64,000 nt of DNA from an uncultured Alphaproteobacteria bacterium (GCA_944392225.1 CALXWB010000003.1:8723-72722); one strand, 5' to 3'. Positions 40,636-62,983 are shown, numbered from the stretch's first letter. A program made the numbers and translations. Notes: generated by a model from the letters alone, not told the origin.

Positions 40636-42387
40636 CTAGAACAGGCGGAGAACGGCTTGGCTTGCTTGTGAAGCGAGTGAGAGGGAGTTAATTGCCAATT
40701 GTTGTTGCGTTTGCAGGGAGAGCATGTTGGCGGACTCTTCATTCATATCAGCCAATGTTAATTTATCCGCACCTTCTTCCAGAACATTAATCAAATTATC
40801 GGTAAAAGTTTCGCGCTCGGTGATAATCGAATAATAGTTACCGAGTTTGGTTGAGGCCGAGCGCAAGGTGTTTTTTGCGTTAGATAATTGTTCTATGGTT
40901 TTTTGCACATCATCTGCCGTTAGCCAATCGGCCGTTATTAAACCGATTTTATCGGAGCTCAAATCCACACCCATCACATCCAAAGTGGCGCTGCGATTTT
41001 CATTAAAAATCACTTTCAAATCATCTGCTTGAAGAAGATTAACGCCCTTGTATGAACTGTCTTTAATCAAAGAATCATATTGCGACAAAGTTTTGTTGAA
41101 ACTTGAAGTATATTTATCTTCCACCTTGCCTCTTAGGCTATTATCTCCCTTGAAATCAAAATCTTCCCAGCTATATTCCGTTTCGGTAAAATCTGCAAGA
41201 TTTTTGCGAATGTAATCTGCCGTAATAAATATATGGGGATCTGGTTTAACATTTCCTGTTAATGTGATATCTTTTGAGGCAACAAAACTTCCTTGATCTT
41301 GATAATTCAACCTTGCGCCGGTTTCAAAAATCATTGCTCCGGGGGTTGAATCGCTTTGCAATATGGACATTATATTATACCCCATCATATTTACTTCTGA
41401 GCCGGATTTAAAAGTTATATTGCCTTTTTGGGTTGTTACATCAAAAGCAAAAGTTCCTTTCGTATAAATATTCAATTTTCCATAGATATTGGCATTGTTA
41501 CTAATTGCATAATTATATAATGAGCCCTCATTTCTAATGGTTGTTTCGCCATATATGTCAACGACCGAAGATGCAGATGAATCAATGGCATAGATATAAT
41601 CATTTTCGGAAAGATCAAAAAAGTTTTTGCCGTCTATTTTTGTATTGTTTGAACCTAAGGCATATAAACCTCTTATATTGGTTTTGATGTCAATATTTTG
41701 CGCAAGCGTATTATTCGCACTGTTCAAATAAATACATTGCCCTTCTCCGTTTGACTTAACATCAATTGACAGATCTGAAATGATATTATTATCAGCACTT
41801 GAGCTTATTGCAGAAAAAGATCCTGTCCCATCATATTCAAACTTAAGCGAGGAGAATTTGTCGGTGTCGGAGTCAAATTTGCCATAATAACCAATACCCA
41901 CCAGTTTTTGATTGTCTTTTAAGGTGATGTTTTGGTCGCCCATGTCAATCTCGCCATAAATGCAAATCTCTTCTTTGCCGGCCTTGACGGCATTAATTAA
42001 TTCTTCTTTGCTGCTGACAACCGCACCGTTTTCTCCGACCAGGCTTTCAAAATAGCTTTTTTCTGGGATTTTTAAGTCTTCCAAAGCCGAATTGGCCGTG
42101 GCTTGCGCAATGGCTAAAAGCTCTTCCGCTTTTTCTATCCCTTCAGTGGCGGCTTTGATTGTTTGCACCGATTGGCCCATCGAATCAAGCAATGCGGACA
42201 AATCCTCGGCTCGGTTATTAAGCGAGCTGGCGGTGTAATAGGAACTGGGGTTATCTATGGCGGAATTAACTTTTAAGCCGGTGGATAAGCGTAATTGCGT
42301 GCTGTCCTGCAACTTTGAGATTTGTTGCAAGCTTAACAAATTGCTGCGCATGGACGCTGTTAAACTTATTTCTGACATATCCACCAA
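40636..42387 (-). CDS. Giant flagellin-domain protein 1 (flagellin N- and C-terminal D0/D1 helices with a large beta-helix-like central insert)
   Basis: The N-terminus (…ISLTASMRSNLLSLQQ…QLRLSTGLKVNSAIDNPSSYY…) and C-terminus (…LADMNEESANMLSLQTQQQLAINSLSLASQ…LRLF) match flagellin termini. The central ~350 aa is N/S/T/G/I-rich and repeat-like. Confidence 0.8.
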   Translation of the reverse strand: MVDMSEISLTASMRSNLLSLQQISKLQDSTQLRLSTGLKVNSAIDNPSSYYTASSLNNRAEDLSALLDSMGQSVQTIKAATEGIEKAEELLAIAQATANSALEDLKIPEKSYFESLVGENGAVVSSKEELINAVKAGKEEICIYGEIDMGDQNITLKDNQKLVGIGYYGKFDSDTDKFSSLKFEYDGTGSFSAISSSADNNIISDLSIDVKSNGEGQCIYLNSANNTLAQNIDIKTNIRGLYALGSNNTKIDGKNFFDLSENDYIYAIDSSASSVVDIYGETTIRNEGSLYNYAISNNANIYGKLNIYTKGTFAFDVTTQKGNITFKSGSEVNMMGYNIMSILQSDSTPGAMIFETGARLNYQDQGSFVASKDITLTGNVKPDPHIFITADYIRKNLADFTETEYSWEDFDFKGDNSLRGKVEDKYTSSFNKTLSQYDSLIKDSSYKGVNLLQADDLKVIFNENRSATLDVMGVDLSSDKIGLITADWLTADDVQKTIEQLSNAKNTLRSASTKLGNYYSIITERETFTDNLINVLEEGADKLTLADMNEESANMLSLQTQQQLAINSLSLASQASQAVLRLF

Positions 42388-42510
42388 CTACTTTTGTATA
42401 TTGTTTTTTCTTTTGGATGAGGTTTATTTAATACTCAAAACCTTTTCATCCGCTTTTTACAGTATCATGCCTTGGGTTAATGTTTGGTTAATGCACAAGA
42501 AAAAAGCTCC
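42100..42510. repeat. Inverted repeat, left copy (promoter/5'UTR plus first ~95 codons of flagellin-like gene 1)
   Basis: About 95% identical to the reverse complement of 60811-61205. The antisense ORFs 42257..42586 and 60820..61050 give near-identical peptides (MAELTFKPVDKRNCVLSCNF…), confirming the repeat. Confidence 0.85.
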
Positions 42511-42530
42511 TTTGCAGGAGCTTTTTTCTT
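42499..42530. terminator. Terminator after cvpA (hairpin symmetric on both strands)
   Basis: aaaaaagctcc-tttgca-ggagctttttt. Confidence 0.65.
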
Positions 42531-60810: not shown

Positions 60811-61205
60811 GTTGGTGCATTAACCAAACATTAACCCGGCATATGGTAGTTTAAAAGACGGATGAAAAGGTTTGAGTAAGAAAACCGCATCCAAAGTATT
60901 GTAATATATCAAAAAGTAGTTGGTGGATATGTCAGAAATAAGTTTAACAGCGTCCATGCGCAGCAATTTGTTAAGCTTGCAACAAATAGCAAAGTTGCAA
61001 GATAGCACGCAATTACGCTTATCCACCGGCTTAAAAGTTAATTCCGCCATAGATAATCCCAGTTCCTATTACACCGCCAGCTCGCAGAATAACCGAGCGG
61101 AGGATTTGTCAGCTTTGCTTGATTCAATGGGCCAATCGGTGCAAACCATCAAAGCCGCCACCGAGGGGATTGAGAAAGCGGAAGATTTATTAGAGCTAGC
61201 CAAAG
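60811..61205. repeat. Inverted repeat, right copy (promoter/5'UTR plus first ~95 codons of flagellin-like gene 2)
   Basis: See the left copy. The upstream 110 bp (gtgcattaaccaaacattaaccc…aaaagtagttggtggatATG) is shared by both genes. Confidence 0.85.
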
Positions 61206-62983
61206 CCACGGCAACCGATATTTCTGAAAAGCTTAGCAGTGAAAATATTTTTGCCATTGTCAGCAACAAAACTGAACTGTTAAAAGCTGTCAATAAATGG
61301 GAAAGCGGCAACGGGTTGATTGTTTTGGCCGAAGATATCAACATGGGTTCAACTAAGTTAGAGCTCAAAGACAATCAAAAACTGGTGGGTTTGAACTATA
61401 TTGACGGCTCGCAAAAAAGAGCAGAACTGAGCTGGACTTTTGCTGCTGACAGTGAAGACGGCCGCGGTATGATCATGGCAGAAGATAACCTGCTATCAGA
61501 TATAAAAATTACTTATAACTCAGATAATATTGATGCTGCGAACAAATCCTTTAATGCTATTTATAATGACGGCCATAAACTCAACCTGCATAATGTCGAT
61601 TTGACAGTGAATCATACGGCAACAGGAACAGATAATTTTAGTGCATCACATATAAGTGGTATAGAAAATGTGAATAGCGGTGAAATCCACATGAGCGGAA
61701 ATGTGACGCTAAATTCTTCTGCTAGCAAATTATATGGCTTGACTTTAATTCGCCACCAAGACCAATCATGTCAATTGGTGTTGGAAGATGATTCACATTT
61801 GGATATAAAAACCAATTATATATACAATCAAGTTATTTATTCTGGAACAAACGTATTTTTAAGTGATGTTAATGTAAATTATACATCAGGAACAACATCC
61901 ATTTTCAAAGATGGAAATTTTTCGTTTTATAAAAGTTTTTATCTTAGGCAAAGTACAACATCGACAGTAGTCTTTGATAGTTGCAATACATCTTTTTATG
62001 GAAATGCAAATTTTGATGTTATCGGTTATAATAATTGGCTATTTAAGGATGGAATCAGTAATATCTACGACAAAATGACATTAAAAATTTCAAGTGGAAA
62101 TTCTAATTATAGTACAAGCTTATTATCAGATAATCATACAATGAATATTAAAAATGGAGCAGAAGTATTGCTCAACCAGACTGTGAAAGAAGTTTTTATC
62201 AGCAATCAATCGACTAACCAAATCAACATTTCAGCCGGGGCAAAGTTTGGGGTGAAGAAAGACAGTAGCGGGATTGATAAGCTTTATCAGGCAGATAAAG
62301 ATACAAATATTACGACGTCATCTGCTGAACAAGTGGAAGACTTTGTCGGCGTGGACGGATTGTCGGTGACAGGTACTTTTCCACAATCGGCTTATGATAC
62401 CGCCATGGCTGACTTAACCGCAGAAATTGCAAAAATCGGCACCAGAAGTCATGAAAGCACGTTGAATGATAAAGACAAAATCTCCAACTATCAAACAAGC
62501 TTGACACAAGGGCAAAAATATACCGATATCATCAAACAATATGATGATTTAATCAAAGATAGCGCTTATAAAGGTGTGAATCTGTTACAAGGCGATGACC
62601 TCAAGGTGATTTTCAACGAAAACCGCAGTTCAACGGTTGATGTCTTGGGGCAAGATATTCGTTCCGATGAAATCGGTTTAATCACCACCGATTGGAAATC
62701 TTTGGCCGATATTAAACAATCTTTTGATGAACTCACTATTGCCAAAAACACTTTGCGCTCTGCTGCAACCAAACTCGGTAACTATTATTCAATTATCACC
62801 GAGCGGGAAACCTTTACCGATAATTTGATTAATGTGTTGCAAGAAGGTGCGGATAAACTCACGCTTGCCGATATGAATGAAGAGTCCGCCAACATGCTCT
62901 CACTGCAAACCCAACAACAACTGGCGATTAATTCTTTATCCTTAGCTTCTCAATCGTCACAATACATTTTGCGATTGTTCTAG
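60920..62983 (+). CDS. Giant flagellin-domain protein 2 (paralog of 40636..42387 with a different central domain)
   Basis: First ~90 aa nearly identical to protein 1, and the last ~110 aa about 85% identical. The 450-aa central region is N/S/T-rich and beta-helix-like, and unrelated in detail to protein 1. Confidence 0.8.
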   Translation: MVDMSEISLTASMRSNLLSLQQIAKLQDSTQLRLSTGLKVNSAIDNPSSYYTASSQNNRAEDLSALLDSMGQSVQTIKAATEGIEKAEDLLELAKATATDISEKLSSENIFAIVSNKTELLKAVNKWESGNGLIVLAEDINMGSTKLELKDNQKLVGLNYIDGSQKRAELSWTFAADSEDGRGMIMAEDNLLSDIKITYNSDNIDAANKSFNAIYNDGHKLNLHNVDLTVNHTATGTDNFSASHISGIENVNSGEIHMSGNVTLNSSASKLYGLTLIRHQDQSCQLVLEDDSHLDIKTNYIYNQVIYSGTNVFLSDVNVNYTSGTTSIFKDGNFSFYKSFYLRQSTTSTVVFDSCNTSFYGNANFDVIGYNNWLFKDGISNIYDKMTLKISSGNSNYSTSLLSDNHTMNIKNGAEVLLNQTVKEVFISNQSTNQINISAGAKFGVKKDSSGIDKLYQADKDTNITTSSAEQVEDFVGVDGLSVTGTFPQSAYDTAMADLTAEIAKIGTRSHESTLNDKDKISNYQTSLTQGQKYTDIIKQYDDLIKDSAYKGVNLLQGDDLKVIFNENRSSTVDVLGQDIRSDEIGLITTDWKSLADIKQSFDELTIAKNTLRSAATKLGNYYSIITERETFTDNLINVLQEGADKLTLADMNEESANMLSLQTQQQLAINSLSLASQSSQYILRLF

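Follow-up and report, generated by a model that had tools for sequence, protein, structure and literature searches.

Two flagellin genes with predicted beta-helix cores flanking a probable replication origin in an uncultured alphaproteobacterium, and the large family to which they belong

A stretch of 64,000 nucleotides from an uncultured alphaproteobacterium (GCA_944392225.1, CALXWB010000003.1:8723-72722; hereafter the window, i.e., the whole stretch analysed) harbors two long genes with flagellin termini, referred to as gene 1 and gene 2, which lie outside any flagellar gene cluster. Their position and their large central regions raise the question of whether they encode filament subunits, enzymes displayed on the filament, or proteins exported for another purpose. 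A first-pass annotation, made from the sequence alone, had described them as giant flagellins that might bear enzymatic or adhesive surface domains or, alternatively, as flagellin-fold proteins put to another secreted role. The analysis reported here makes it rather probable that they are filament flagellins, in which an alphaproteobacterial D0/D1 scaffold carries an outer beta-helix domain that is non-catalytic and of adhesin-type ancestry, and that they belong to a dispersed multigene family evolving in concert. Flagellins of this kind are uncommon but have already been catalogued, and the two genes do not represent a new system.

Two intact genes with flagellin termini

40636..42387 (-), gene 1, open reading frame (ORF) as called mechanically, with TTG at 42387; intact
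40636..42378 (-), flagellin gene 1, 580 amino acids (aa) plus stop; probable real start at ATG 42378
42070..42378 (-), gene 1, N-terminal D0/D1 helices, aa 1-103 (AlphaFold2 helices 9-33 and 44-102)
41131..42069 (-), gene 1, core, aa 104-416; predicted right-handed parallel beta-helix, outer domain
40636..41130 (-), gene 1, C-terminal D1/D0, aa 417-580 plus stop (AlphaFold2 helix 417-443, hairpin 454-468, helix 488-579)
60920..62983 (+), gene 2, ORF as called mechanically, with TTG at 60920; intact
60929..62983 (+), flagellin gene 2, 684 aa plus stop; probable real start at ATG 60929
61238..62512 (+), gene 2, core, aa 104-528; predicted beta-helix strands 107-482, then helices 486-501 and 515-526

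The two ORFs are intact, and their lengths had been given as 583 and 687 aa. Both translations open with LVDMSEISLTASMRSNLL; however, the start is the internal Met in two database proteins that are 100% identical to gene 1 (P0012) and to gene 2 (P0001), as well as in all the aligned homologues. For this reason, the real products most likely comprise 580 and 684 aa, translation probably starting from the ATG at 42378 (-) in gene 1 and from that at 60929 (+) in gene 2.

The termini are canonical, as the first-pass annotation had recognized, and the terminal sequences quoted there are present. The Pfam model Flagellin_N (PF00669) scored 31.0 bits with gene 1 and 26.6 bits with gene 2, the latter exactly on the gathering cut-off of 26.6; Flagellin_C (PF00700) scored 34.4 and 32.8 bits, respectively (cut-off 23), and all 51 aligned relatives match Flagellin_N. 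In the secondary structure predicted by AlphaFold2, the ND0, ND1, beta-hairpin, CD1, and CD0 elements are all present in both proteins. Among the PDB sequences searched with phmmer, the nearest to gene 1 is 7sn9 ('Flagellin A', E 7.6e-17), followed by the Caulobacter flagellins FljK, FljL, FljM, and FljN at about 1e-12 (7e-13 for gene 1 against FljK), and the alpha-type C-terminal motif ADMNEES..LQTQQQLAI is common to the window proteins and the alphaproteobacterial flagellins of the PDB. Foldseek matched the termini to Caulobacter FljK filament subunits, with 27-28% identity. The best NCBIfam models were PRK12688 (752 aa, E 1e-59) and PRK14708 (888 aa, E 4e-56); the scores of the two proteins, 202.5 and 199.8 bits with the former and 190.6 and 183.5 bits with the latter, lie far below the respective cut-offs of 614 and 1384, and the alignment is confined to the termini (query aa 425-579 against model positions 592-750). 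Judged from these sequence features, both genes are true flagellins.

No flagellar apparatus gene emerged from the Pfam/NCBIfam annotation of the approximately 50 ORFs of the window, and a phmmer search of all called ORFs with 47 flagellar and chemotaxis proteins of E. coli K-12 retrieved only the ATPase homology between Rho and FliI, in agreement with the earlier statement that fli, flg, and flh genes are missing from the 64 kb. Members of the same family in other genomes do have such neighbours. P0009, which shares 78% identity with gene 1, has a flgE gene at a distance of 2.3 kb, and another flgE directly follows a 720-aa family member (locus L077); flgB, fliE, and an flhB-like gene adjoin a member in L032, whereas fliM occurs in L033, fliN in L068, and cheR together with cheY in L029. 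In the metagenome-assembled genome (MAG) CAKQMD01 (L023, 12980-17412), flbT (Pfam 8.8e-35) is followed by three tandem short flagellins of 402, 372, and 358 aa by ORF, whose termini are of the same type as those of the long copies; the first of them has an Ala/Glu-rich helical middle and no beta-helix. A 618-aa copy of the beta-helix type is located 4 kb upstream of this group, so that CAKQMD01 possesses both short and long flagellins. The occurrence of flgE, flgB, fliE, fliM, fliN, and flbT near family members indicates that the lineage has flagella, from which the same may be supposed for the genome of the window.

The scattering of these genes among housekeeping genes, instead of flagellar operons, might also suggest that their products leave the cell through the flagellar type III apparatus without joining the filament, as secreted adhesins or immune modulators comparable to FlaC; the three short flagellins beside flbT, found in at least one related MAG, could then be the true filament subunits. 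Set against this are D0/D1 domains that are full length and extremely conserved, with a ratio of nonsynonymous to synonymous substitution rates (dN/dS) of 0.02-0.08, and termini that closely resemble both the short flagellins of the same lineage and the filament flagellins of solved structure. Moreover, some long copies stand directly beside flgE or flgB/fliE, and giant flagellins demonstrate that a filament can accommodate large outer domains (PMC6248924). Such a non-filament role, which had been one of the two options of the first-pass annotation, thus appears quite unlikely.

The beta-helix core and the search for catalytic signatures

AlphaFold2 was run on alignments of 46 and 51 sequences and returned a mean predicted local distance difference test (pLDDT) score of 79.8 for gene 2 and 77.1 for gene 1, with the cores mostly above 90. 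Long series of short strands occupy aa 118-400 of gene 1 and aa 107-482 of gene 2, and for both cores the high-confidence prediction is a right-handed parallel beta-helix, the fold that had been proposed for them. Structural matches of the cores comprise enzymes (polysaccharide lyases of the PL1, PL6, and PL9 families, alginate lyases, and glycoside hydrolases of the GH28 family), phage tailspikes and depolymerases, the passengers of the autotransporters Vag8 and UpaB, and the adhesins PfbA and SRRP; Foldseek retrieved the same beta-helix set, and the predicted fold of the cores is the right-handed parallel beta-helix that characterizes PL1.

The two cores had been considered entirely different from one another, which is true only in part. 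When they were compared by BLASTP, a single segment of 95 aa aligned (34.7% identity, E 2e-9) and nothing else. In a codon-aware alignment of the two genes, amino acid identity is 97% over codons 1-60, 40-44% in 30-codon windows over aa 91-180 (the cap and the first rungs), 10-35% across the remaining core, and again 80-97% over most of the C-terminal part, where D1/D0 are 77% identical over 154 aa. Hence, the cores are highly variable, and BLASTP gives no alignment for about 70% of their length, but they have the same predicted fold and a homologous cap, with homology extending over the first ~100 core residues. The same trend is observed in the family: in an alignment of 38 cores, the mean column identity is 19%, and conserved columns are found only in the first ~60 residues (A19, V21, E26, L27, A30, I44, L53, Q57, L59, and G61), plus two glycines.

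The cap also provides the link to adhesins. The Pfam family PF20585 (Pectate_lyase_5, 'putative pectate lyase-like adhesive domain') matches aa 107-222 of P0067 with 27.6 bits (gathering score 24.3) and 8/38 family cores at E <= 0.1; the cap region homologous to this matching part is conserved in both genes of the window. A profile built on the family cores reached, with the cap only, the binding region of the adhesin SRRP of L. reuteri (5nxk, E 0.025) and the pectate trisaccharide-lyase of T. maritima (3zsc, E 0.21).

The presence of active PL1, PL6, and PL9 lyases, GH28 enzymes, alginate lyases, and phage depolymerases among the closest folds, together with the precedent of proteolytic flagellins for enzymatic filaments (PMC11532411, PMC7643111), would be consistent with cores acting on the filament as polysaccharide lyases or glycoside hydrolases that degrade dietary or host glycans, an idea parallel to that of flagellinolysin. 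The search for catalytic signatures, however, was negative. Motifs were scanned in 238 family cores, adopting the generally known definitions for PL1 (vWiDH, RxPxxR) and GH28: vWiDH, RxPxxR, and HExxH occur in 0/238 cores, the last being the zinc-peptidase motif of flagellinolysins, which the window proteins likewise lack, and GH28-type motifs are rare (3-26/238), neither gene of the window having one. No catalytic Pfam family was matched at E <= 0.1 by 51 full-length members or 38 cores, in which the only matches besides flagellin were the adhesive PF20585 and one weak Beta_helix; in the window proteins, no Pfam match to a polysaccharide lyase or a peptidase was found. Lastly, no polar residue is conserved past the N-terminal helix cap in the 38-core alignment. 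The absence of catalytic motifs from the 238 cores leaves an enzymatic function of the whole family unsupported, and this explanation, advanced in the first-pass annotation, is very unlikely.

Some points weigh against regarding the two proteins as adhesin-like filament subunits. The D0 domains have a pLDDT below 50, so that the models give no positive support to polymerisation; low confidence in D0 is usual for monomeric flagellin models. The predicted beta-helix, which would have to pack on an 11-protofilament lattice, is 10-13 rungs long and its ends are far apart. Adhesion is suggested only by the fold and by a Pfam family, PF20585, that neither window protein matches at E <= 0.1. Finally, the 64 kb contain no flagellar export, hook, or motor gene, and the flagellation of the organism itself is deduced from its relatives.

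A dispersed family with concerted termini and divergent cores

The two genes are ordinary members of a very large multigene family. Of the candidates scored in the two full-length protein searches, 2874 and 4110 were homologues. Nearly all of them have 570-740 aa and the two flagellin Pfam domains only, and many share 40-53% identity across 100% of the query. With the core only, phmmer retrieved just 17 matches among 1.8 billion representatives and no informative homologue outside the flagellins (P0209 and P0212 have no Pfam match, P0210 and P0207 only a weak PF20585), which indicates that the core is extremely divergent despite the large size of the whole-protein family. A scan of species-representative genomes gave at least 526 matches, the best 80 of which all belong to MAGs of uncultured Alphaproteobacteria or of a 'proteobacterium', several of them labelled Hadza or Nepal; these taxon names give no ground for Rhizobiales, the group with which the genes had originally been compared.

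Several copies occur in the same genome, with 12 loci in CALXTG01, nine in CALXVV01, six in CALXPK01, 11 in CAKQMD01 (about 17 genes or fragments), and six in CALYAX01, three of which are on one 206-kb contig; in other genomes too, the copies are scattered among housekeeping genes. About one third of the family members from MAGs (loci L005-L082) start or end at a contig end. Since the conserved termini evidently break short-read assemblies, the counts given for each genome are minimum values, and in some cases two fragments may derive from a single gene. Approximately 16 further clusters (P0008-P0028, 595-703 aa) match the first 90 residues of the window genes with at least 93% identity and differ from them in core and length, being likely additional paralogs of the same or of a sister species; two of these, P0009 and P0017, occupy different loci in a single metagenome sample.

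The pairwise comparison of gene 1 and gene 2 disclosed a mosaic. Codons 1-60 share 96% nucleotide identity (90% at third positions), identity drops sharply after about codon 70, and a second patch of ~90% nucleotide identity spans codons 504-563; this pattern points to patchy gene conversion acting on an old duplication. Between these extremes, aa 444-474 retain 80% protein identity with only 33% identity at third positions, i.e., the protein was kept while third positions diverged, as expected under long-term purifying selection and not in pseudogenes. Among the MAGs, the first 180 nucleotides of the paralogs show a median identity of 89% within a genome vs. 64% between genomes, and the best BLASTP partner comes from the same MAG for 27/33 N-termini and 24/33 C-termini, and for 10/33 cores. 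The frequency of same-MAG partners for termini and their paucity for cores indicate that the termini evolve in concert, whereas the cores are old lineages found across species.

The positions of the copies vary as well. In two other MAGs (L034 and L058), by the dnaA-dnaN-recF block, a flagellin stands between the homologues of the window genes at 868-1425 and 41-871; in the window these two genes (41-871, and 868-1425 with a DnaJ domain) are convergent, overlap by 4 nucleotides, and have no flagellin between them, so that syntenic sites are polymorphic for the presence of a flagellin. In another species (L008), the coaE-dnaQ-fla-smr order of gene 2 is kept and the core barely aligns with that of gene 2. 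The closest relative of gene 1 examined follows accBC, whereas gene 1 adjoins recR.

Selection was assessed from region averages of dN/dS (Nei-Gojobori; dS 0.4-1.2) between gene 1 and its ortholog in L088. The values are 0.02 for the N-terminal D0/D1, 0.08 for the C-terminus, 0.15 for the core cap, and 0.37 for the rest of the core. The core is therefore much less constrained than the termini, in which purifying selection is very strong. The first-pass annotation had tentatively proposed that the core diversifies under selection; positive selection is not demonstrated by averages of 0.15-0.37.

Two further explanations were discarded. A pseudogene or silent-cassette nature of the two genes is ruled out by the intact ORFs, the conserved leaders, and the saturation of synonymous sites with a conserved protein. 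An assembly chimera is ruled out too, both genes lying on one contiguous window whose syntenic housekeeping neighbours recur in other MAGs.

The similarity between the two genes extends upstream of the starts:

42379..42496 (-), gene 1, upstream block, presumed promoter and 5' leader; leader hairpin 42415-42451
60815..60928 (+), gene 2, upstream block; leader hairpin 60860-60892

These blocks of ~115 nucleotides are nearly identical (GTGCATTAACCAAACATTAACCC), and in both leaders the hairpin GGAUG..GGUUU-loop-AAACC..CAUCC folds alike (two sequences). A sigma-70 scan of the coding strand upstream of both genes found no site besides one 9/12 match at 60706, the sigma-28 and sigma-54 consensus sequences fitted the block unconvincingly by eye, and a terminator scan gave weak candidates only. 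The block may be the target of a translational control of the FlbT/FlaF type, or of an alternative sigma factor. All the copies examined have their own start codon and their own upstream block, conserved within the lineage.

Other elements were seen upstream of the copies in other genomes. The motif TGTGGAAAAG occurs ~90-110 nucleotides upstream of the flagellin starts in L014, L020, L022, L036, L043, L054, L063, L067, L070, L076, L077, and L082, which represent several different MAGs. Often an element resembling TGGCA/TGGTC…TTGA and an AT-rich box, TATA(T/A)A, come after it. The motif is unlike the upstream block of the window and could act as a regulatory site common to these copies. In the MAG CALXTG01 (L045, L049, L050, and L059), palindromic elements GGTCAAGCC(C/G)GAG(A/T)ATGACA, at least one per site, are located 60-130 nucleotides upstream of several paralogs. 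They resemble repetitive extragenic palindromic (REP) sequences or miniature inverted-repeat transposable elements (MITEs) and might have a role in spreading or recombining the copies.

The mosaic, with its drop after about codon 70 and its high patch at codons 504-563, the clustering of termini by genome and of cores across genomes, the barely alignable core at the coaE-dnaQ-fla-smr locus of L008, and the many copies per genome would all be expected if one or a few copies were expressed and gene conversion shuffled different cores behind a constant 5' end, varying flagellar antigens or phage-receptor surfaces in a programmed way similar to pilE/pilS. However, none of the copies examined lacks a start codon or a conserved upstream block of its own, and none looks like a promoterless silent cassette; beside the flagellin genes of the window, neither an invertible element nor a recombinase nor a switch flanked by repeats was observed. 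Concerted evolution of flagellin paralogs is also a feature of ordinary multi-flagellin bacteria, and flagellin is reportedly mentioned in a genome-wide survey of concerted evolution. We consider programmed variation very unlikely.

Coming back to the filament flagellins preferred here, the whole might work as follows. In the host, an uncultured alphaproteobacterium with relatives from metagenomes, several of them of the human gut, the conserved segments at both ends of the protein would assemble into the D0/D1 coiled coil that polymerises as the filament core, after export through a flagellar type III apparatus encoded elsewhere in the genome. The filament surface would be made by the middle 310-425 aa, folded as a right-handed parallel beta-helix that stands out from D1; this outer domain, presumably derived from a pectate-lyase-like, adhesin-type beta-helix (PF20585, SRRP/PfbA-like), would be a non-enzymatic surface module with a structural role and variable antigenicity, which might also bind glycans or mediate adhesion. 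Patchy gene conversion would keep the 5' leader and the D0/D1 coding parts alike within a genome, while the cores would be old, highly diverged lineages common to several species. With an upstream block for each of them, the copies would probably be expressed individually, and they could be either co-assembled or expressed alternately.

A broader proposal, which we put forward tentatively and consider rather unlikely, is that a genome maintains a repertoire of at least a dozen dispersed flagellin genes, in which gene conversion preserves a constant scaffold and 5' leader and the ancient, trans-specific beta-helix cores serve as interchangeable filament surfaces, some of which might even be catalytically active. 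If so, the family would be the flagellar counterpart of surface-antigen gene families, and it could serve to change how the cells adhere to glycans of the host or of the diet, or to escape antibodies and flagellotropic phages.

Genomic surroundings and known systems

Apart from the two flagellins, the approximately 50 annotated ORFs of the window are housekeeping genes, arranged in the following order:

DnaJ-domain gene, fpg, dnaA (5390-6868), dnaN, recF, N6-methyltransferase gene, lolA, gyrB, polA, PBP1 gene, gpmI
dnaX, recR, fla1 (gene 1)
cvpA-like gene, radA, mlaFE, tsaE, parB, parA, rsmG, mnmG, mnmE, rho, coaE, dnaQ
fla2 (gene 2), smr
37662-37757, signal recognition particle (SRP) RNA
58907-59492, rho-coaE spacer, AT-rich (GC 0.29); probable oriC

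Gene 1 and gene 2 flank the rho-mnmE-mnmG-rsmG-parA-parB region, as the first-pass annotation had noticed in placing them around the parAB/oriC core. The rho-coaE spacer contains four DnaA-box-like sites within 260 bp (59172, 59197, 59324, and 59425), one of them perfect (TTATCCACA), and coincides with a change of sign in the GC skew and a switch in gene orientation; it is the probable chromosomal origin. The two flagellin genes point away from it, one on either side, and dnaA is ~52 kb distant. Between xth and gyrB, at 13040-14528 (-), a 282-aa protein with a Bro-N domain, a domain usually associated with phages or viruses and found here amid otherwise housekeeping genes, adjoins a 209-aa response regulator of the OmpR type.

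Taken together, the observations of the first-pass annotation turned out to be largely correct, and its interpretation is supported in part. Far from being plain conserved flagellins, the two proteins carry an unusual insert; yet this insert is family-wide and its fold is already catalogued. The interest lies mainly at the level of the family, in its scattered copies, concerted termini, and trans-specific hypervariable cores, and not in the two genes themselves. The outer domains of flagellins set the mechanics, adhesion, antigenicity, and phage recognition of the filament, and the pectate-lyase-like domain has so far been just an AlphaFold cluster (PMC11532411) without structure, host biology, or function. 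The window ties the fold to a concrete and abundant lineage, uncultured Alphaproteobacteria from metagenomes (several from the human gut), with many copies per genome and a scaffold evolving in concert. Should the domains prove to bind glycans or mucus, each filament would display, in very many copies, a commensal adhesin of a new class; should expression switch from copy to copy, the family would add a new case of surface variation in the gut.

Among the known systems, the filament flagellins of Caulobacter (FljK, FljL, FljM, and FljN; 6xky, 8uxj, 8uxn, and 9cef) and 7sn9 are homologous to the window proteins in D0/D1 (E 7.6e-17 to 1e-12), and alphaproteobacterial flagellins resemble them also in the occurrence of several paralogous flagellin genes per genome and of FlbT in the lineage. 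The solved ones, however, comprise 270-395 aa with little or no outer domain, whereas the window proteins insert a predicted beta-helix of 310-425 aa between ND1 and CD1. PRK12688 and PRK14708, which we take to be thick-filament flagellins of the Bradyrhizobium type, have termini of the same type and cores unrelated in sequence. The Gram-positive beta-solenoid adhesins (SRRP of L. reuteri, 5nxk; PfbA of S. pneumoniae, 3zpp and 4mr0) have in common with the family the N-terminal cap motif v-V-s-t-e-E-L..A...g....I.l..dI.l, but they are cell-wall-anchored or serine-rich-repeat adhesins and not inserts in a flagellin.

As in flagellinolysins and giant flagellins, the hypervariable region houses a large displayed domain (PMC7643111, PMC6248924). 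Flagellinolysins contain an HExxH metallopeptidase that is missing from the cores of this family. As for the term 'giant' used in the first-pass annotation, it is defined in the literature as more than 1000 aa (Thomson et al. 2018, PMC6248924), so that it does not suit proteins of 580 and 684 aa; nor is their size rare, considering that 4,678 PF00669 proteins longer than the 495-aa FliC of Salmonella were present in UniProt in 2017 (PMC6248924).

A further likeness is that with the flagellin outer-domain cluster #35, 'pectate trisaccharide-lyase-like', one of 682 AlphaFold-based clusters and one without an experimental structure (Fields et al. 2024, Nat Commun, PMC11532411), which comprises flagellins with a predicted pectate-lyase beta-helix as outer domain; the likeness is one of predicted fold. 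Beyond that work, nothing relevant was found in the literature on beta-helix flagellins or on the flagella of gut Alphaproteobacteria of the RF32 type, and no paper was found on the expansion of the present family in uncultured Alphaproteobacteria. Neither copy-number expansion nor concerted evolution is described for the cluster in PMC11532411, whereas both were found in the family to which the two genes of the window belong.

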